39,076 nucleotides of DNA. Origin: an uncultured bacterium (GTDB taxonomy: Bacteria > Chlamydiota > Chlamydiia > Chlamydiales > JAAZZY01). Location of the stretch: NCBI GenBank assembly GCA_964351075.1, contig CAYGMF010000006.1, forward strand, positions 1 to 39,076. The letters are read 5' to 3'. The position numbers were made by a program, and so were the translations under genes. The notes beneath the pieces are model-generated. The model was not told where the DNA came from. It saw only the letters and a program-made list of their open reading frames with translations, and made no database searches. Below, piece by piece: positions 5,409 to 29,779 of this stretch (its first letter is position 1; the number at the start of each line of letters is the position of its first letter).

Positions 5409-5528
5409 ATAAATTCAAAAGTTAAGTTTAAAAGGGAAAGTATAAGTGAATTGTGAGATTTCCGATAGAACTAAACCTCTCTTTTCCGAGAGGAAATAGC
5501 TATCTTAAGAGATAAGTCAAATAGTCAG

Positions 5529-5674
5529 ATCAGTTGAACTTCCCTCGCCTAAAGCCGAAGGGTTCTTGCTTTATAGCCCTGCTATTGTGCCAGCCCCACA
5601 AGCTTTAAGACCGACACCCCAGCTGCTTCAGGTTTAAGATTTAAGAATCAGTGACTCTCCCTCGCTTAAACCCC
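5529..5674. repeat. two direct copies of a ~28-nt motif in the non-coding gap downstream of the RHH gene
   Basis: ATCAGTTGAACTTCCCTCGCCTAAAGCC (5529-5556) and ATCAGTGACTCTCCCTCGCTTAAACCCC (5647-5674) share ATCAGT...TCCCTCGC.TAAA. No ORF spans either copy. Confidence 0.4.
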
Positions 5675-5705
5675 GTATACGCGTTTGTATCAATTAGTAC
5701 AGGTC

Positions 5706-6170: not shown

Positions 6171-6199
6171 TTGAATAAGATTACCCAACTTGTAATAAT
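6171..6199 (+). promoter_or_regulatory. sigma-70-type promoter with extended -10 (TTGAAT-N17-[TGt]AATAAT)
   Basis: TTGAAT at 6171-6176, TGT at 6191-6193 and AATAAT at 6194-6199. It aligns with the promoter of the downstream paralog at 7242-7269. Confidence 0.4.
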
Positions 6200-6234: not shown

Positions 6235-7182
6235 ATGAATCAGCTTCAATCTATCTCAACTGTTTTAGCTCCCGATCCACTTCTATCTCAGTCTGTTGTT
6301 TCAGAATGCTCGGAGTTAAATTCTTTAAGTACTGCCCGTGTTTTTTCAACTTGGATCTCTTCGTTTATTTACCCCTCTTCCAATGAAGTCCTCATAAAAA
6401 AAGATGTTTGTGAAATGTTAGTCGGAAATAAAATGCAGAGCTTTACTCAAGTAATCGCTCATTTATTCAACAGTTTTTTTGGTGCAAATTTGATAGACAG
6501 AGTCATTGAGAATCCTTCAATAAAACTCGCTAATACAAGCTTAACTAAAATAATAGGAAGTTTACGTAACCGAAAAGAAAGTCACTCTATCTTAGCTGAT
6601 GTAACTGCTAAAGGAAATATTAAAGCTATGAACGCATTCGTGAATGCAAATGTTAACTTGGATACCCAGACTAAAAGTGGAATGACATCCTTAATAAAGG
6701 CAGCAGATAAAGGTGATTACGAAGTTGTGAAACTCCTAGTAGATGCTAAAGCAGACTTAGACATTCAAAGCGAAACAGGTGCTACGGCTTTGATGCAAGC
6801 AGCAGCAAGAGGACACTATAACATTGTGAAACTCCTATTAGATGCTAAAGCAAATTTAGACCTTAAATACAAAGAAGGCATAACCGCCTTGATGTTTGCG
6901 GCAGGAATGGGGCATCTCGAAGTAGTGAAACTCCTTATCAAAGCAGGAGCGGATATAGATATTGTGAACGAATTTGAGCAGACAGCCTTAAGTATAGCAG
7001 ATGCTAAGGGTCATCACAAAATTGTAGAATTCCTAATGAGCTCCTATATAGAGAAGGATAGAAAAGAAAGATTTAAAAATTATCAAACTGAAATGGCGAA
7101 AGCTCTAAAAACTGGAAGAATGACCGCCTATATTAAGAATAACCAAAATGTACAAGTTCAAAGTCGAAAAATTGAACTGTAA
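6235..7182 (+). CDS. ankyrin-repeat protein, paralog A (ends in KIEL)
   Basis: A ~135-aa N-terminal module shared with the next gene is followed by four ankyrin units (GMTSLIKAADKGDYEVVKLLVDAKADLDIQ, GATALMQAAARGHYNIVKLLLDAKANLDLK, and others). GGAGGG Shine-Dalgarno at 6224-6229. Confidence 0.85.
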   Translation: MNQLQSISTVLAPDPLLSQSVVSECSELNSLSTARVFSTWISSFIYPSSNEVLIKKDVCEMLVGNKMQSFTQVIAHLFNSFFGANLIDRVIENPSIKLANTSLTKIIGSLRNRKESHSILADVTAKGNIKAMNAFVNANVNLDTQTKSGMTSLIKAADKGDYEVVKLLVDAKADLDIQSETGATALMQAAARGHYNIVKLLLDAKANLDLKYKEGITALMFAAGMGHLEVVKLLIKAGADIDIVNEFEQTALSIADAKGHHKIVEFLMSSYIEKDRKERFKNYQTEMAKALKTGRMTAYIKNNQNVQVQSRKIEL

Positions 7183-7241: not shown

Positions 7242-7269
7242 TTGAAAAAAAAACTCTGGTTGCTATAAT
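7242..7269 (+). promoter_or_regulatory. sigma-70-type promoter with extended -10 (TTGAAA-N16-[TGc]TATAAT)
   Basis: TTGAAA at 7242-7247, TGC at 7261-7263 and TATAAT at 7264-7269, 35 nt upstream of ATG 7305. Confidence 0.55.
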
Positions 7270-7304: not shown

Positions 7305-8663
7305 ATGAACCAAGCTCTATCTATTTCAAACGTTTTTGTTTCCAATCCAGTACTCTCTCAATCTGTTGTTTCAGAGTGTTTAGAACTTCAATCTATGAGT
7401 GTCATCCCAGTTTTTTCAACCTGGGTCTCTTCATTTCTTAACAATCCATCAAATGAGCTGCTTATCAAGCGAGATGTTTGTAAAATTTTAGCTGGAAGTT
7501 ACATAGAGAACTTTACTGATGTAATAAACTCTTTATTCAACAGTTTTTTTGGTGATAGCTTAATAGATAGGGTGCTTAAGCATCCTTCAGTCAAACTGGG
7601 CGATACAAGCTTAATTAAAATAATAGGAAACTTACACGACAAAGAAAATAAACACTCTATTTTATCAGCTGTAGCTGCCCGAGGAAATGTTAAAGGGATG
7701 CGAGCATTAGTCAAAGACAGTAGTGTCTCAAGCATCCAAGCTGAAGAAAACGCAAAAGCTTTAATACGAGCAGCTGCGCAGGGCCATTATGAAGTTGCAA
7801 AAATTCTTGTAGATGCTCATGCAGGCTTAAATCTTCAAGAAAAAAATGGTATAAGTGCCTTGATGTTTGCTGCGACTTTGGGTTATCACAAAATTGTTGA
7901 ACTGTTAATAGAGGCCAAAGCCAACTTAGATCTTCAAGGCAGCGGAGGCTCTACAGCCTTGATGTTCGCTGCTATTCAGGGACATCATAAAATTGTTAAA
8001 CTTCTAGTGGATGCTAAAGCTAACTTAGATCTTCAAGAAGATAGTGGTACAAGCGCCCTTATGGGAGCGACAACTAAGAGGTATTACAAAACTGCTAAAA
8101 TTCTAGTGAATGCAAAAGCTAACTTAGATCTTCAGGATAAAAAAGGGGTAACAGCCCTTATGTCGGCTGCAGCTGAGGGGGACTACAAAACTGTTAAGCT
8201 TCTAGTAGATGCTAAAGCTAACTTAGATCTACAAGATCAAAACGGCTCACCAGCCCTTATAATAGCGACAGCTAAGGGGCATTACAAAATTGCTAAACTT
8301 CTAGTGAATTCTAAAGCCAACTTAAATCTTCTATACAAAGAAAATGTCAGCGTTTTAATGCTTGCTGCAGGCCTAGGACACCACAAAACTGTCAAGCTTC
8401 TAGTAGATGCTAAAGCCAACTTAGACCTTCAAGGGAAAAAAGGCAGAACAGCCTTAATGGAAGCTGCAGAGATAGGTTCTCTTGAGAGTCTCAAACTCCT
8501 TATAGATGCAGGAGCTGATTTTAATTTGGAGGACAATGATGGACGCACAGCCCTCTCAATCGCAAAGAGAAAAGGCCATCAAGAAATTGTAGATTTTCTA
8601 ATTGATTTAGGTTTCAAAAATCTAGGAATTGATCCCTCTGAAGCTAAAAAAGATGAGTTATAA
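7305..8663 (+). CDS. ankyrin-repeat protein, paralog B, with a C-terminal KDEL
   Basis: It shares the N-terminal module of paralog A, followed by about 9 ankyrin units, many almost identical (..ALM.AA..GH.K.VKLLVDAKANLDLQ..). The last four codons, aaa gat gag tta (8649-8660), encode K-D-E-L before taa. Confidence 0.85.
   Translation: MNQALSISNVFVSNPVLSQSVVSECLELQSMSVIPVFSTWVSSFLNNPSNELLIKRDVCKILAGSYIENFTDVINSLFNSFFGDSLIDRVLKHPSVKLGDTSLIKIIGNLHDKENKHSILSAVAARGNVKGMRALVKDSSVSSIQAEENAKALIRAAAQGHYEVAKILVDAHAGLNLQEKNGISALMFAATLGYHKIVELLIEAKANLDLQGSGGSTALMFAAIQGHHKIVKLLVDAKANLDLQEDSGTSALMGATTKRYYKTAKILVNAKANLDLQDKKGVTALMSAAAEGDYKTVKLLVDAKANLDLQDQNGSPALIIATAKGHYKIAKLLVNSKANLNLLYKENVSVLMLAAGLGHHKTVKLLVDAKANLDLQGKKGRTALMEAAEIGSLESLKLLIDAGADFNLEDNDGRTALSIAKRKGHQEIVDFLIDLGFKNLGIDPSEAKKDEL
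7803..8495 (+). repeat. in-frame tandem array of seven 99-bp (33-codon) ankyrin units
   Basis: The unit phase recurs at 7803, 7902, 8001, 8100, 8199, 8298 and 8397. Long near-identical stretches such as cttctagt(g/a)gatgctaaagc(t/c)aacttagatcttcaag recur from unit to unit. Confidence 0.8.
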
Positions 8664-11830: not shown

Positions 11831-14380
<2,550 letters not shown>

Positions 14381-14695
14381 TTAGCCGATTCGAAAACGAA
14401 TGTCTTTAATATCAGTTTTGGGGAATTTTTCCTTTATCTTTTTTAACAAAATGCGTTTTTCTTTGTAAGTTAAGATGCTCAAGAGAGTTGAATTAGAAAC
14501 TTTTACTTCTAGAACACCTTCATATAAGCGATGTGCACACGTCATCGGCGCTAATTCTTCCCCAATGATTTCAGGCCAAGCGAGCAACACTAAATCAGAT
14601 CTTTGATCACAAGCGGTCGTTACTTTTTTTAAAAAGTTCGGGCAAAGGCGAGTGATTGATTTAAGTGTTGTGTCTGTTTTTTTTCGAAAGTACAT
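14381..14695 (-). CDS. DUF721 / DciA-like protein upstream of gyrB
   Basis: WPEIIGEELAPMT....L.EGVLEVKVSNSTLLSILTYKEKRILLKKI matches the DUF721 pattern (W..IvG..la..t.p..l..g.L.v.v.ss.w..eL). It has the conserved position immediately upstream of gyrB, as in Chlamydia. No clear Shine-Dalgarno is present. Confidence 0.55.
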   Translation of the reverse strand: MYFRKKTDTTLKSITRLCPNFLKKVTTACDQRSDLVLLAWPEIIGEELAPMTCAHRLYEGVLEVKVSNSTLLSILTYKEKRILLKKIKEKFPKTDIKDIRFRIG

Positions 14696-14707
14696 GCAGC
14701 GCTTGAT

Positions 14708-14737
14708 CTAAAAAAATCCCCTAATTAAAGGGGATTT
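14708..14737 (-). terminator. intrinsic terminator (minus strand)
   Basis: The minus strand reads AAATCCCC-tttaatta-GGGGATTT followed by TTTTAGA. This is an 8-bp stem with a GGGG/CCCC core running into a 7-U tract. Confidence 0.55.
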
Positions 14738-15110: not shown

Positions 15111-16619
15111 TTAGAACTCACCTTGAGAGTCGATTAAATCCTCCAAGAAGGCGAGTATAAGGCGAACGCCTACTCCTGTAGCCTTTGTACTGTGATAGTC
15201 TCGAGGATCTCCTATATAGGCTGTTCCAGCGATATCTAGGTGAGCCCAGGGAGTTGATTTAACAAACTCCTGTAAAAAGAGGCCTGCTACAACTCCAGAG
15301 GGGTAACCTGAGCGCCCGGCCGTGTTTTTAAGGTCTGCAATATTGGATTTCAGGGCTACTTTATAGTTTTCGTAAAGGGGTAATTCCCAGACTTTTTCTC
15401 CACTTATATCGCCAGAGAGGCAGAGCTTTTTAGCGAGTTTCTTGCTATTAGACATAAGGCCCGTTATTTCATTTCCAAGGGCAGCCATAACCCCTCCAGT
15501 AAGCGTAGCTAAGTCAATCATGCAACTCGGATTTAGATGCTTCTCTGCGTAAGCTAAAGCGTCTGCTAAAACAAGCCTACCTTCAGCATCTGTACTTAAG
15601 ATTTCAACTGTCTTACCTAAATAACTTTCATAGACATCACCAGGCTTGTAGGCGGTATCACTAATCGCATTTTCACAAGCTGGGACCACACCGATTATAT
15701 TGAGAGGTAAGTCTAGTTTTGCTGCAGCATGCAAAATACCTAAAACAGCAGCAGCGCCTCCCATATCACATTTCATGTGAATAATGGAACCCGATGAAGC
15801 TTTGAGCTGTATTCCTCCAGAGTCATAGGTAATTCCCTTACCCACTAAGACAGTAGCTTCTTTATCTTTAGGGTTTCCTTTATAGTTCACCATAATGAGT
15901 GCAGGATTTAAAGAAGTTCCTCGATTAACAGCCAGCATTAATTTTAAGTGTTCTTTTTCGAGCCTTTTTTTATCAAAAACAACGGTTGAAACTTTTTTAA
16001 ATGTTTTAGCAAAACCAAGAGCAATTTCAGAGAGCTTATCCGCATTCATGGTGTCTGCATTTTCATTTACCAGATCTCTTGCGAGATTTACACCCTCACA
16101 AATACTCATTGTTTTTTCAAGTACGCTCTTGTAAGTACTTTCAAGACCTACTATGCGACAAACTTCAATAGGTTCTAGCACCTTCTTGCTCGTCCCTTTT
16201 AGTTTTGTGAAAAGATAGTTTGCAAGTAAAAGCCCTTCACAAACACCTTTAAGCGTTGATTCTACTGTTATTTTTTTTAATTCTGGAAAGAGAACATTTA
16301 TTTTTTTTAAATGACGCACATGACAGAAACGGGTAAGTGCAGCATAAGACTTTCTTAAAGACTCCACCGTAAGCTGAGACTCTTGTCCAAGGCCTAGCAA
16401 AGCAAGTCTAGGCTCCTTCTGCCTTTCTGGGTGCACAATGAACAACTCACCAAGCCGACCTTTAAAGTCTCCAAGCTCAATTGTTTTTTTAGTCTCTTTT
16501 TGAAACAGCGCTTTAGTAGAGGCAGCAACAGACTTGCTGCCTCTCTTTTGATAGAACGGCAAAACAAGTAGATCTGCAAGAGGTCTTCTATTTATATTTT
16601 GTACGTTCGTAATACGCAT
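15111..16619 (-). CDS. pepA: leucyl aminopeptidase (M17 family)
   Basis: VGKGITYDSGGIQLK, MKCDMGGAAAV and the signature NTDAEGRL present as STDAEGRLVLADAL. Length is 502 aa, and the gene starts 2 nt after the ssb stop. Confidence 0.9.
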   Translation of the reverse strand: MRITNVQNINRRPLADLLVLPFYQKRGSKSVAASTKALFQKETKKTIELGDFKGRLGELFIVHPERQKEPRLALLGLGQESQLTVESLRKSYAALTRFCHVRHLKKINVLFPELKKITVESTLKGVCEGLLLANYLFTKLKGTSKKVLEPIEVCRIVGLESTYKSVLEKTMSICEGVNLARDLVNENADTMNADKLSEIALGFAKTFKKVSTVVFDKKRLEKEHLKLMLAVNRGTSLNPALIMVNYKGNPKDKEATVLVGKGITYDSGGIQLKASSGSIIHMKCDMGGAAAVLGILHAAAKLDLPLNIIGVVPACENAISDTAYKPGDVYESYLGKTVEILSTDAEGRLVLADALAYAEKHLNPSCMIDLATLTGGVMAALGNEITGLMSNSKKLAKKLCLSGDISGEKVWELPLYENYKVALKSNIADLKNTAGRSGYPSGVVAGLFLQEFVKSTPWAHLDIAGTAYIGDPRDYHSTKATGVGVRLILAFLEDLIDSQGEF

Positions 16620-16621
16620 AA

Positions 16622-17035
16622 CTAAAAAGGGATCTCATCATCAATATTTGAAGGAGCTGAAGAGGCTTTTGCTGTTTGCGCAGGAGCTTCTTGATTTTCA
16701 GCTTTATTTCCTTCTGAAGAGCCACGTCCAAACGGACTGAAGCGTATAACGTCAGCTACGATGTCTAATGAAATTTGAGACTTACCTTCTTTATCTGTGT
16801 AGATTTCAGGCTTAGTCATTTCACCAATTACAATTAAAGGACTCCCTTTTTTGAGATAAGGAATCATTTTATCAAAGCGATCTCCCCAGATAGTTACTCT
16901 CCACCAAAGAGTGGTATCTTGTGCACCCTTTCTAGAGTGTGTCGCTAGTCTTAATGTTATTACCTTTTGACCCGAAGCTGTGTGACGTTCTTCAGGATTA
17001 GCCCCTAGATGCCCAGCAATTTGTAACCAATTCAT
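16622..17035 (-). CDS. ssb: single-stranded DNA-binding protein
   Basis: An OB-fold N-terminus (MNWLQIAGHLGANPE...TLWWRVTIWG), a Gly/Ala/Gln-rich linker and the canonical acidic tip DDEIPF. Confidence 0.9.
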   Translation of the reverse strand: MNWLQIAGHLGANPEERHTASGQKVITLRLATHSRKGAQDTTLWWRVTIWGDRFDKMIPYLKKGSPLIVIGEMTKPEIYTDKEGKSQISLDIVADVIRFSPFGRGSSEGNKAENQEAPAQTAKASSAPSNIDDEIPF

Positions 17036-17174: not shown

Positions 17175-17711
17175 TTAAATCTTAATGATGTTTTCACCTG
17201 GAGATGGAGGACGAGAATTCCCACCAGGGCCCATCCCGCCAGGACCGATTCCACCAGGACCACCTTGTCCGGGACGTGGAATTTCAACTTCTTTGCCTTC
17301 TAAAACAGCTTTAGCAATTTTACGCCATTTTTCTACAGTTTCTACATAGAGAGGAGCAAAAGCGCGCAGCGCTTGCATTCCAGCATGTTCCATATCTAGA
17401 ACACAGTGCATTAAAATAAGCTCTTCTTTAACAGCAACGCCAACTCCGCCACCTGCCATCTGTCCGCCAAGCATCGACCCTTCTAGCATTTTTTCATATA
17501 GTCGTAATCGAATTTTAGGATCTTTAGGGAGCCCGTCTATGATAGGCGAATACACGTAAAGCCTTTTTGAATTTGGTTCGTAGGTCATGTGCATTGAGAA
17601 TTCATCATCGATTCCCAAAATACATGTGTTATTTTCGTCGAACTGAAGACCTTCTAGTCCTAGCTCCTTTCCAAATTCAACCAAATTCTCTTTGGCGTTT
17701 TCTAATGACAT
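17175..17711 (-). CDS. CesT/Tir-type type III secretion chaperone-like protein with a Gly/Pro-rich C-terminal tail
   Basis: The N-terminus L.EFGKELGLEGLQFDENNTCILGIDDEFSMHMTYEP..KRLYVYSPI is typical of class I T3S chaperones. The gene order chaperone-ssb-pepA matches my recollection of C. trachomatis CT043(Slc1)-CT044-CT045. Confidence 0.55.
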   Translation of the reverse strand: MSLENAKENLVEFGKELGLEGLQFDENNTCILGIDDEFSMHMTYEPNSKRLYVYSPIIDGLPKDPKIRLRLYEKMLEGSMLGGQMAGGGVGVAVKEELILMHCVLDMEHAGMQALRAFAPLYVETVEKWRKIAKAVLEGKEVEIPRPGQGGPGGIGPGGMGPGGNSRPPSPGENIIKI

Positions 17712-23676: not shown

Positions 23677-24918
23677 ATGGCCATTCTACTTCTCTTACTC
23701 CTAACCCTAATCTCAGCTACCTTTTCAGCATCAGAAACGGCTCATTTTTCATTATCTCCAATGAAAATCCGAGATTACCAAGAAGATTCTAATCCAAGGA
23801 AGCGCCTTATTGCCAATCTTCTAAAATCTCCCTTGGAGCTTTTAGTGACAATTTTAATGATTAATGTTTTGGTGAACATTCTCATTCAAGATACAGTTTC
23901 CCATATTTTTGGCACGAAATCGAGCTGGCTTTTAACTGTAGGTGTTCCTCTTGTTATTACCTTAGTTTTTGGTGAAATCATTCCAAAAACTTTAGCCTTA
24001 GCTCATAACTCTCGCTTTGCTTATTTCATAGCTCCCTTAATTGCAACTGCGCGCTCAATCTTGGGGCCTGTTCGTCGAGCGCTCACTATCTTTACGAGTA
24101 TGATGACGAAGTTCATTTTCTTCTTTCTCAAAAAAGAAATGGCTATCACAAAAGATGAACTCAAGCACGCCCTAAAAGCTGGCCGGGAAAGAGGACTTTT
24201 AAATACTCGTGAAGCCGCTTTAATGCAGGGTTACATCTACCTTTCACATAAAGCGGTTAAAGACTTCAAAAGACCTCGCGAGGATATTATTTACTACGAC
24301 CTTAAAGAACCCCTCTCTAAGCTTGAACACATTTTAGTGGACCAGGAGGTTTCTAGACTTCCAGTTACTGAAGGAGGCGATCTGGAAAACATTAAAGGAA
24401 TTATCAGCGTTCGCAATTACTTTTTGCAGAAGGAAAAGTTATCTAATGCTGAGGATTTAATCCCCTTTTTGATGAAGCCCTATTTTGTCCCAGAATCAAT
24501 GCCGGCGAAGAACCTTCTTAGATATCTGGACAACAAAGGTAAATCTATTGCCATAGTAGTCGATGAGTACGGCTCCATTTCAGGGTTAGTGACACAAGAG
24601 GACTTGATTGAGGTTGTCGTTGGAGAAATTTCAGATCGTCGCGATGTTAAAGAGAGTTATACCCCTGCTGGAAAAGATGCTATTATTGCAAGCGGCAAGC
24701 TTGAACTTACAGAATTTGAAAATATATTTGGAACGCACCTTGTTAGCGCAGGAAACATGGTCACCATAAATGGATGGCTCATCGAAAAAATAGGAACTCT
24801 TCCAAAAACAGGTGACAAGCTTACTGAAGAAGGATTTTTCTTTCATATTCTTGCAACAGACCCTAATCGCATCCGCCGTATCTATATTCGAAAAATTAAA
24901 AACCAAAAAAAGGGATAA
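23677..24918 (+). CDS. DUF21(CNNM)-CBS pair-CorC/HlyC transporter-associated protein (TlyC/CorC family)
   Basis: Four N-terminal TM helices (LLLTLISATFSASETA.., GEIIPKT), a central CBS pair (V.DFKRPREDIIYYD.., SIAIVVDEYGSISGLVTQEDLIEVVVGEI) and a C-terminal CorC_HlyC-like domain. Confidence 0.85.
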   Translation: MAILLLLLLTLISATFSASETAHFSLSPMKIRDYQEDSNPRKRLIANLLKSPLELLVTILMINVLVNILIQDTVSHIFGTKSSWLLTVGVPLVITLVFGEIIPKTLALAHNSRFAYFIAPLIATARSILGPVRRALTIFTSMMTKFIFFFLKKEMAITKDELKHALKAGRERGLLNTREAALMQGYIYLSHKAVKDFKRPREDIIYYDLKEPLSKLEHILVDQEVSRLPVTEGGDLENIKGIISVRNYFLQKEKLSNAEDLIPFLMKPYFVPESMPAKNLLRYLDNKGKSIAIVVDEYGSISGLVTQEDLIEVVVGEISDRRDVKESYTPAGKDAIIASGKLELTEFENIFGTHLVSAGNMVTINGWLIEKIGTLPKTGDKLTEEGFFFHILATDPNRIRRIYIRKIKNQKKG

Positions 24919-24919
24919 T

Positions 24920-26158
24920 GTGAATACAGCAGCATTTTGGCTTTCGATCACTCTCTTTTGTGTTTTAGTCCAAGCTTTCTTCGCGATGATGGAGATGGCT
25001 GCTGTATCTTACAACAAAGTTCGCCTTCAGTATCATGTCTCCAAGGGTTCTAAGCGAGCCAAATGGCTCTCTAGTCTCATTTCTAATCCCCCAAGACTTT
25101 TTGGAACAGCCCTTTTTGGTGTCAACCTTGCCCTTCAAGTAGGCTCTGAGTGCTCAAGAAGACTTTATTTAGCTCTTGGAATAAACCCAGACTTAGCGCC
25201 TATAACTCAGGTCCTTATTGTACTCGTTTTTGCTGAACTTACTCCTATTTTTGCAGCTAGAAAATATTCTGGACAAGTCATCATGGCGGGGATCCCTGTT
25301 CTTTATACTCTATCCAAACTCTTAATTCCTGTTACTTGGACAATTGGCCTCATTAGCCAAACCATTAATTATTTGGTGACTGGTTCTAAAGAGGTTCACT
25401 TGATGAACATTACTCGAGATGAGCTGCAAAGAGCACTTGAAGAGCAAAGTCATGAAGTGAGGCCGATAGGCGATGATCCTGACTTTAACCTCCTTGTTGG
25501 AAACATTTTAAATTTACAGAATAAAGAAGCTGCTCACTTGATGATTCCCCTTCATCAGGTCCATATGGTGTCGAGCACACATACCGGGGAAAAAATACGA
25601 GAGATGCTCGATAAATCGTATCACCCCTTTCTACCGGTCTATGAGGAGGATCGTACTAACATTATCGGAATTATCGATACACGAGACCTTATCAAGTCTG
25701 ATTTAAAAAAGGAGAGCAAATCCTTTGTCGAGCCTCCATGGTTTGTAATTTTAGATGCCTCAGCAAGTGAGATTTTGAATCAGTTCAGGCACAACGAACA
25801 GAATGTAGCAGTTGTACTTGATAATGAGGGACAAGCTCTTGGAATTTTAACTTTAGATCTGATTATTAAAGCGCTATTTGGAGAAGGTATTGAAGATCCT
25901 CTTCCTCTCTTGGAAAGTAAAAAAACTTCTTTATTAGACAGAACTCTTCCAGGAGAGTTGTTAATTAAAGATTTTAATCAACACTTCAATGCCGAAATAG
26001 AGCACTTAGGCTGTTCTAATTTAGGAGAGCTTGTACATCAAATTTTGGGCCATCACCCTGAAATTGGGGAACTTATCAGAGTTGGCCCCTTTGAAATGAA
26101 GATTGAAGAAGTTTCTTTAGGTCATATTAAAAGTGTCTTAGTTCGCTCTATTATATAG
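24920..26158 (+). CDS. second DUF21-CBS-CorC/HlyC protein (paralog of the preceding gene)
   Basis: The domain order is the same (AMMEMAAVS.., AELTPIF, a CBS pair with NVAVVLDNEGQALGILTLDLI). I place the start at GTG 24920, with AAGGGA 5 nt upstream, directly after the preceding stop. The track start at 24812 would overlap the previous gene by 107 nt. Confidence 0.8.
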   Translation: MNTAAFWLSITLFCVLVQAFFAMMEMAAVSYNKVRLQYHVSKGSKRAKWLSSLISNPPRLFGTALFGVNLALQVGSECSRRLYLALGINPDLAPITQVLIVLVFAELTPIFAARKYSGQVIMAGIPVLYTLSKLLIPVTWTIGLISQTINYLVTGSKEVHLMNITRDELQRALEEQSHEVRPIGDDPDFNLLVGNILNLQNKEAAHLMIPLHQVHMVSSTHTGEKIREMLDKSYHPFLPVYEEDRTNIIGIIDTRDLIKSDLKKESKSFVEPPWFVILDASASEILNQFRHNEQNVAVVLDNEGQALGILTLDLIIKALFGEGIEDPLPLLESKKTSLLDRTLPGELLIKDFNQHFNAEIEHLGCSNLGELVHQILGHHPEIGELIRVGPFEMKIEEVSLGHIKSVLVRSII

Positions 26159-28885: not shown

Positions 28886-29779
28886 CTAGGTTACAACTGG
28901 GGCTAGGCTCATCAAGAGGATATTGACTCCATTAAAAGTGGCGTGTAGTCCGATGGACGCATAGATCGATTGTTGTCTAAAATAGACAAAACCTAAGAAT
29001 AGAGCGAGTGTAAAAAGTGAAGGGATAATTTCTAAGTTGCCCCATCCTTGAGATGCTGAAAAGTGAAAGCATGAAAAAATGAGTGCTGTTAAAATAATAC
29101 CTGGTTTTCTTCCTAAGAAGCGGGCAAACCAGTTCTGTAAAAACCCTCTAAAAATAAGCTCTTCAATGACAGGCACAATGATAATGATAAAGAAACTTGT
29201 AAGAGCAAAGAGTATAGGGGTTTCCATAGTCGACTTTAAAAAGCGCACAGCCACTTGATCATGACCTGTTAACCCAAAATAAGTAATCAGAATATTAAAG
29301 GCTTGGCTAACTGCTAAAACGAGGGGAAAACTGATTAAAAAAGTTAAAATCCCCATTCCAACGTTGCGTACATTTTTTGAAAAACCTTCAAAAGATTTGG
29401 GTCCTAAAACAGATCGCCTAGACTCATGGTTTATCGCTCTTACATAACTCCAAAAGGCAATAAATAATATCGCCATGAGAATTAAATTGATCCAAGCTCT
29501 TACAGCATCTGTCTCTAAAGAGAGTTCTTGCTTTAGACCGATAGGAAAAGTTTTTAAGATTTGGACCAAGATAAATGGAACAACTAGAGAGATTCCAAAA
29601 TAGATCAAAAAGGTTAAGCAAACTTGCATTAAAGTTACTCGAATACTTTTTCGATCTAAGTCAGGTAACCTGAAGTAGCGCTTATGCCAAGCAATAAAGC
29701 AGGTTATGAGTGAGAGAAGAAGAGCTAATAGAAAAATGCCTAGATGCTCTTCCAAAACTTGTTGAAAGGTGGGATCCAT
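28886..29779 (-). CDS. CPBP-family intramembrane glutamic endopeptidase (CAAX protease/Abi family)
   Basis: A polytopic membrane protein with the three family motifs EELIFRGFL, FSCFHF and HATFNG. Confidence 0.8.
   Translation of the reverse strand: MDPTFQQVLEEHLGIFLLALLLSLITCFIAWHKRYFRLPDLDRKSIRVTLMQVCLTFLIYFGISLVVPFILVQILKTFPIGLKQELSLETDAVRAWINLILMAILFIAFWSYVRAINHESRRSVLGPKSFEGFSKNVRNVGMGILTFLISFPLVLAVSQAFNILITYFGLTGHDQVAVRFLKSTMETPILFALTSFFIIIIVPVIEELIFRGFLQNWFARFLGRKPGIILTALIFSCFHFSASQGWGNLEIIPSLFTLALFLGFVYFRQQSIYASIGLHATFNGVNILLMSLAPVVT

Follow-up and report, generated by a model that had tools for sequence, protein, structure and literature searches.

A tandem pair of ankyrin-repeat genes

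The 39,076-nt stretch of contig CAYGMF010000006.1 analysed here (the window) carries on its forward strand a tandem pair of genes for ankyrin-repeat (Ank) proteins, Ank315 and Ank452 (Table 1), the second of which ends in Lys-Asp-Glu-Leu (KDEL), the tetrapeptide of proteins resident in the eukaryotic endoplasmic reticulum (ER). The Ank452 open reading frame (ORF) starts at the first ATG past an in-frame stop in the ORF listing and encodes 452 aa ending ...PSEAKKDEL; codon 449 begins at position 8649, the codons aaa gat gag tta (8649–8660) specify the tetrapeptide, the stop codon taa (8661–8663) follows directly, and the protein fits the C-terminal pattern [KRHQSA]-[DENQ]-E-L of PROSITE entry PS00014 (ER_TARGET). 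Ank315 (315 aa) ends ...QSRKIEL, with K-I-E-L encoded by aaa att gaa ctg (7168–7179) immediately before its stop. A sequence-only reading of this DNA had drawn attention to the KDEL end, and to a terminal x-E-L in both copies, and each of these observations is confirmed.

Both products matched the Pfam family Ank_2 (E 2.6e-69 for Ank452 and 1.5e-29 for Ank315), and Ank452 scored above the gathering thresholds for Ank_2 (230 bits; threshold 27.3) and Ank (163 bits; threshold 21.1). The AlphaFold2 model of Ank452 contains ten helix pairs, with a predicted local distance difference test score (pLDDT) of 84–92 in many blocks, and as modelled Ank452 is an ankyrin-repeat protein with a helix-turn-helix solenoid. 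The last blocks are assigned by DSSP to coil at a pLDDT of ~52–69, including all of the final 13 residues. A Pfam scan of Ank452 found no F-box, U-box or enzymatic (catalytic) domain.

The two proteins align by BLASTP at E 6e-91 with 50% identity over 279 aa, the alignment carrying a 33-residue gap, and identity rises to 59% over a common N-terminal region of ~125 residues (alignment A1). By sequence comparison they are tandem paralogs, in agreement with the earlier description of a bacterial ankyrin-repeat gene with a tandem copy. Similarity extends upstream of the coding regions, the duplicated unit taking in the promoter and ribosome-binding site region; a promoter-like site (identified by consensus match only) precedes each of the two genes, and the duplication therefore took in the regulatory region. 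The site of Ank452 lies 36 nt upstream of its ATG, and Ank315 has a strong AGGAGG ribosome-binding site. Because Ank452 contains a tandem array of 99-bp units with 71–80% matches, its repeats are taken to have expanded within the gene relative to the five-repeat Ank315. GC content at third codon positions (GC3) is 0.29–0.30 in both genes, equal to that of the housekeeping genes gyrA, gyrB and ruvB; the pair are therefore not recent imports, and recent horizontal transfer was rejected as an explanation of their presence.

Table 1. Positions of the features of the Ank locus and of other window genes mentioned in the text.
Feature	Position	Strand	Basis
Ank452: novel N-terminal domain, ~10 ankyrin repeats and short KDEL tail	7305..8663	+	ORF, Pfam, AlphaFold2
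Ank452 N-terminal domain, residues 1 to ~112, predicted helical	7305..7640	+	alignment with paralog; no match in Pfam or PDB
Ank452 ankyrin solenoid, residues 113–439, ~ten 33-residue repeats	7641..8621	+	Pfam, AlphaFold2 model
Tandem array of 99-bp units (one Ank repeat each), 71–80% matches	7857..8469	+	Tandem Repeats Finder
Ank452 C-terminal tail, residues 440–452 (NLGIDPSEAKKDEL region), predicted coil; KDEL at 8649–8660	8622..8660	+	sequence, DSSP
Ank452 sigma-70-type promoter-like site TTGAAA-16-TATAAT with TG extension (extended -10)	7242..7269	+	11/12 matches
Ank315 paralog: same N-terminal domain, ~5 Ank repeats, 47-residue tail ending KIEL	6235..7182	+	ORF, Pfam, BLASTP
Ank315 promoter-like site TTGAAT-17-AATAAT with TG extension	6171..6199	+	consensus match
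CesT-family type III secretion chaperone gene	17175..17711	-	Pfam PF05932, E 2.3e-27
Further Ank ORF, 276 aa	80..910	+	
Further Ank ORF, 529 aa	1020..2609	+	
Further Ank ORF, 478 aa	37412..38848	-	
Tryptophan-halogenase-like FAD enzyme, 456 aa	2596..3966	-	
Ribbon-helix-helix (RHH)-like ORF, 86 aa	5706..5966	-	weak VapB/RHH antitoxin-like match, E 0.0018, below the Pfam cut-off
pepA	15111..16619		
ssb	16622..17035		
CNNM/CBS/CorC-type transporter gene, first copy	23677..24918	+	
CNNM/CBS/CorC-type transporter gene, second copy	24812..26158	+	
Rce1-like CAAX prenyl protease family protein	28886..29779	-	Pfam, E 3.2e-19

A nearly orphan N-terminal domain

The N-terminal domain had no Pfam match even at E ≤ 10 and no sequence relative in the PDB (best E 0.4), and AlphaFold2 predicted it to be helical with low confidence (pLDDT 47 when modelled alone and <60 in the full-length model), the model at pLDDT 47 being too poor for a fold search. 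The exact sequences of Ank452 and Ank315 were absent from a collection of 15 billion proteins (exact look-up), and searches with the N-terminal domain returned no match in a word-indexed set of 5.8 billion proteins (as a single sequence or a three-sequence profile), nothing in GTDB genome contigs, nothing in JGI metagenome contigs (degenerate peptide patterns and a 22-nt DNA word common to the paralogs) and nothing in PLSDB plasmids. Matches to the 22-nt word at two loci (L038 and L039) lay in unrelated genes and were set aside as chance. When 1.84 billion representatives were searched exhaustively with HMMER, four borderline matches emerged, three of which were low-complexity or repetitive proteins at E ~1e-4 and were discounted, leaving P0002 as the only credible relative. 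P0002 (446 aa, from two 1.9-kb ENA metagenome contigs of 30% GC) matched profile positions 10–123 at a borderline library E of 2.2e-4 and aligned in pairwise BLASTP at E 4e-16 with 24% identity over 336 aa. It shares the architecture of N-terminal domain plus ankyrin repeats, and its C-terminus, ...HPLKKKKILNS, is without KDEL.

A full-length query retrieved 2,953 generic Ank proteins through the repeat region only, and because only that region was covered these matches are uninformative on the tail; taken as controls for the C-terminus, the best 120 of the 2,953 included no protein ending in [KRHQSA][DENQ]EL. On conservation of the tail, which the sequence-only reading had proposed as a check, the evidence is divided: K-x-E-L is kept in the paralog, P0002 ends in ILNS, and no orthologs were found in the searched collections. 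On the evidence of these searches the Ank315/Ank452 family is nearly orphan, and the genuinely new element of the locus is the nearly orphan N-terminal domain fused to ankyrin repeats, not the KDEL.

Genomic context

Judged by its gyrase sequence, the source organism is a chlamydia of uncultured type whose nearest relatives are uncultured metagenome-assembled genomes (MAGs), which bears out its earlier identification as a chlamydia. The best match to its GyrA among GTDB representatives, at 86% identity, comes from an uncultured Chlamydiae MAG (L001); identity is 75% for L022 and 64–70% for the remaining matched loci with bacterial-level identity, several of which are titled Chlamydiae, Parachlamydiaceae or Rhabdochlamydiaceae and others of which carry non-chlamydial or uninformative titles. 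Housekeeping genes in the window comprise holB, tmk, gyrA, gyrB, dciA, pepA, ssb, queA and ruvB, and the Ank pair is placed between tmk and a cyclase-family gene. In L001 this slot is occupied by two small hydrophobic proteins together with an unrelated Ank protein of 332 aa whose C-terminus is FYGKN, and in L022 holB directly follows tmk. The slot between tmk and the cyclase gene is therefore a variable, effector-type island, in which the Ank pair has no positional ortholog in these closest genomes.

The two small proteins in the L001 slot (13267..13668 and 14189..14731, both on the forward strand of that locus) are paralogous, with a common N-terminus and the hydrophobic stretch TLGYTLLTVGA[VL]AGSVA; neither matched a Pfam family, and they may be inclusion-membrane-type proteins. 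Directly upstream of the Ank pair in the window lies the 86-aa RHH-like ORF; the 297-bp gap beside it (5409..5705) has no ORF of 50 aa or longer for a partner toxin. The RHH-like ORF may be what is left of a mobile or addiction module that marks the variable slot.

Five Ank genes lie within the window. The three outside the tandem pair encode proteins with the C-termini AEEA, SKVP and ERLP, and none has the N-terminal domain of Ank315 and Ank452.

Export and topology

A heuristic analysis of hydropathy and charge found no Sec-type signal peptide in Ank452: the maximum 12-residue hydropathy within the first 40 residues is 1.25, compared with 2.5–2.6 in two Ank homologs with obvious Sec leaders, and the first Lys or Arg is residue 55, leaving no basic n-region. 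There is likewise no transmembrane segment, as no 19-residue window comes near transmembrane hydropathy. With neither a Sec signal nor a transmembrane segment, Ank452 has no evident route to a lumenal compartment. No charged residue occurs among its first 23, 6 of which are Ser, a composition compatible with a type III secretion signal and not diagnostic of one. The CesT-family chaperone gene, which is not part of the Ank locus, is evidence for type III secretion components in this organism; no type III apparatus genes are among the genes of the window, and to our knowledge the type III secretion system (T3SS) is universal in known chlamydiae.

The chaperone gene adjoins ssb and pepA, an order that resembles that of CT043–CT045 of Chlamydia trachomatis.

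These observations also bear on whether the Ank proteins leave the bacterium at all. They could instead serve a cytoplasmic bacterial role, or be decaying effector remnants, with a tail that has no function. Such a reading is consistent with the hydropathy and charge analysis, by which no recognisable export signal of any kind was demonstrated, with an N-terminal domain of no known family and low-confidence fold, and with the orphan status of the family. However, both copies keep long, intact ORFs preceded by promoter-like sites, to which Ank315 adds its strong ribosome-binding site, and the 59% identity of the N-terminal domain between copies argues for purifying selection on it. The Ser-rich, uncharged extreme N-terminus is, furthermore, of the kind seen in many type III substrates, which we infer to point towards export, and Ank-repeat proteins of obligate intracellular bacteria are typically secreted effectors. 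We therefore regard retention in the bacterium as unlikely, though deserving of some weight.

The KDEL receptor binds its ligands on the lumenal side, in the Golgi and the ER-Golgi intermediate compartment. Export by type III secretion would end in the host cytosol, where KDEL would therefore not be read, and the caveat in the sequence-only reading that the receptor sees only the lumenal side stands, given the lack of a Sec signal or transmembrane segment in Ank452. Of the same reading's proposal of an ER-directed effector, the effector role is plausible in view of the ankyrin repeats and the CesT-family chaperone, and the part assigning KDEL the role of ER signal is unsupported: the searched collections yielded no orthologs, neither P0002, the best 120 Ank matches nor the Ank protein in the L001 slot has such an ending, and no lumenal route is evident.

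The KDEL terminus

Chance expectations were calculated from the amino-acid composition of 345 chlamydial ORFs, each at least 150 aa long, with genome size assumed to be ~2,200 proteins. On this basis a C-terminal KDEL has a probability of 2.7–3.8e-5 per protein, corresponding to ~1e-3 for the ~32 ORFs of the window and ~0.07–0.09 per genome; the pattern [KRHQSA][DENQ]EL is expected in 5–7e-4 of proteins, or about one per genome, and a terminal -EL in 0.8–1% of proteins. Three of the 32 window ORFs of at least 100 aa end in -EL, the third being the tryptophan-halogenase-like enzyme, whose terminus is LKEL; terminal -EL therefore occurs on an ordinary enzyme in this genome. The set of working signals is also wider than the PROSITE pattern, as Raykhel et al. 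(2007) reported that 35 non-PROSITE variants also function and that every residue other than proline is accepted at position -3 (PMC2140024). Competent ends should therefore be several-fold commoner, at a rough estimate 0.3% of proteins, and for these looser functional variants the expectation is several per genome. The exact KDEL of Ank452 is mildly unusual, and well within the yield of post-hoc reading of many windows and motifs.

The L001 counterpart of the halogenase-like enzyme (472 aa) ends ...KERST.

Some points weigh against a fortuitous ending. An exact, canonical KDEL on an exposed tail predicted to be coil would be an optimal receptor ligand, and both paralogs end in [KR]-K-x-E-L though their tails do not align: the 19-residue tail of Ank452 and the 47-residue tail of Ank315 gave no alignment past ...IV[ED]FL[MI] with MAFFT, blastn-short or tblastn. 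If the two ends arose independently, the probability of a second K-x-E-L is ~6e-4 and that of a second -EL ~1%, which would be a weak hint of selection on the terminus. Should the ends instead be homologous, with internal indels separating them from the aligned region, then three identities in the last five residues are what the overall identity of 48–59% predicts, and no selection is needed to explain them. Descent of the Ank315 tail from a decayed ankyrin repeat was considered as well; the hint was weak (28.9% identity, mostly in the GHHKIV part) and was not relied on.

The strongest form of the alternative holds that KDEL and KIEL are working ER-retrieval signals: the proteins would be released by a non-Sec path into the inclusion lumen, pass to the ER by inclusion–ER exchange, be captured by the KDEL receptor and become concentrated in the lumen of the ER or of an ER-like vacuole, where the solenoid would bind a lumenal host protein. 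The canonical tetrapeptide at a true C-terminus, on a predicted coil tail, speaks for this, as does the presence of K-x-E-L on two tails that cannot be aligned, the KIEL of Ank315 being a formally competent signal because the -3 position tolerates all residues but proline (PMC2140024). In C. trachomatis, moreover, the inclusion lumen takes in lumenal markers of the ER, among them calreticulin and a DsRed-KDEL reporter, which shows a degree of lumenal continuity or exchange (PMC3533787). The exchange documented there, however, runs from the ER to the inclusion only and not in reverse, and the proteins would still have to enter the inclusion lumen by a non-Sec path, whereas Ank452, with no Sec-type signal or transmembrane segment, has no known path to the periplasm or inclusion lumen. 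The sole distant homolog, P0002, lacks the motif, no orthologs that could show its conservation were found in the searched collections, and three identities in five residues are as predicted if the ends are homologous. Ankyrin repeats are, in addition, classically cytosolic or nuclear interaction modules, which also counts against a lumenal destination. We consider a working retrieval signal very unlikely, and about as unlikely the fuller proposition, of a chlamydial Ank family with a selected K-x-E-L by which proteins released into the inclusion lumen hijack the KDEL receptor of the host to place a bacterial scaffold in the lumen of the ER or of an ER-like vacuole. Were it true, KDEL retrieval would be seen for the first time in a bacterial effector other than a toxin, and an ankyrin effector for the first time in a lumen. 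Such a finding would also represent a new way of placing a bacterial protein in the host ER lumen and argue for lumenal inclusion–ER exchange. The literature searched contained no account of a chlamydial effector, or of an Ank effector, with a KDEL tail.

Nor is KDEL needed for a bacterial Ank protein to reach the ER. Of 20 Orientia Anks, 14 are found at the ER, and KDEL is absent from all (PMC4315096), which argues that the ER tropism of bacterial Anks is independent of the motif.

The charged tail might alternatively carry a different signal, such as a C-terminal type I or type IV secretion signal, or a motif read in the host cytosol, e.g. a PDZ-type ligand. Both paralogs end in two basic residues followed by x-E-L, and the Ank effectors of Orientia, Legionella and Coxiella use C-terminal signals, those of Orientia having C-termini compatible with a type I secretion system (T1SS; PMC4315096). 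Against this, genes for type I or type IV secretion were not seen in the window, the tails of the paralogs differ in length and sequence, and the conserved part of these Ank proteins is N-terminal. KDEL and KIEL would also belong to different PDZ-ligand classes. Another signal in the tail is likewise very unlikely.

Comparison with known systems and favoured reading

Ank452 and Ank315 are like the Ank effector candidates of environmental chlamydiae, Orientia tsutsugamushi, Legionella and Coxiella in their tandem 33-residue repeats and their occurrence in an obligate intracellular bacterium, and in being multi-copy, lineage-specific genes with repeat expansion, variable slots and no orthologs outside a narrow clade. 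Unlike known Ank effectors, Ank452 carries an N-terminal 125-residue domain that matches no described family and for which a single relative was found among ~15 billion proteins. The Orientia Anks possess C-terminal F-box-like regions and T1SS signals and no KDEL (PMC4315096), and Ank452 is without an F-box.

Like the ER-resident lumenal proteins described by PS00014, Ank452 ends in exactly K-D-E-L, on what appears to be a flexible tail. It differs from these receptor ligands in that it is bacterial and has no signal peptide, and hence no entry to the secretory pathway, and in that KDEL is not kept in P0002. A KDEL-type bacterial C-terminus is also found in AB toxins (KDEL in cholera toxin A2, RDEL in heat-labile enterotoxin and REDLK in Pseudomonas exotoxin A), and with such an end Ank452 might in principle make use of retrograde Golgi-to-ER transport. 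KDEL-tailed AB toxins are exported by Sec, reach the endocytic or Golgi lumen by means of their B moieties and carry catalytic domains. Ank452, in contrast, has neither signal peptide nor catalytic domain, and none of its neighbours (tmk, the RHH-like ORF and Ank315) is B-subunit-like.

We therefore favour, as reasonably probable, the reading that Ank452 is a lineage-specific, tandemly duplicated Ank effector candidate, comprising an N-terminal export or targeting module, a host-binding solenoid and a fortuitous KDEL ending; a function for KDEL in Ank452 is unsupported. The gene structure, domains, paralogy, orphan distribution, variable slot and lack of a Sec signal are shown by the analysis; export by type III secretion, binding of a host target and non-function of the KDEL are inferred. 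Under this mechanism Ank452 and Ank315 would be fast-evolving host-interaction proteins of an environmental chlamydia, each transcribed from its own promoter. The common N-terminal 110–125 residues would most likely carry a type III secretion signal together with a chaperone- or target-binding region, and the solenoid, of 5 or 10 repeats, would bind a host protein in the cytosol of the host or at a membrane surface facing it. The terminal KDEL would be ignored by the KDEL receptor, as the chance ending of a short, Lys/Glu-rich, disordered tail.

Other features of the window

A RING domain was suspected by eye in the 478-aa Ank protein, where the Cys/His pattern ECPICL...HVFHTVCL...KCPTCRR lies upstream of the repeats; the suspicion was unsupported (Pfam zf-RING_2, E 0.15). 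If the RING were real, this protein would be a possible E3-ligase-type effector. The window also encodes the Rce1-like CAAX prenyl protease family protein, and a Lawsonia Rce1 ortholog has been reported as an ER-localised T3SS effector (PMC11796264). The two transporter genes of CNNM/CBS/CorC type are adjacent and represent a tandem duplication; their listed ORFs overlap, and the second gene probably starts downstream of the listed GTG.

Conclusions

Short eukaryotic sorting motifs at bacterial C-termini call for caution, as in loose form they are expected about once per genome by chance. The locus documents a variable effector slot beside tmk and gyrA in a poorly sampled chlamydial lineage, and contributes a nearly orphan family of N-terminal domains joined to ankyrin repeats.

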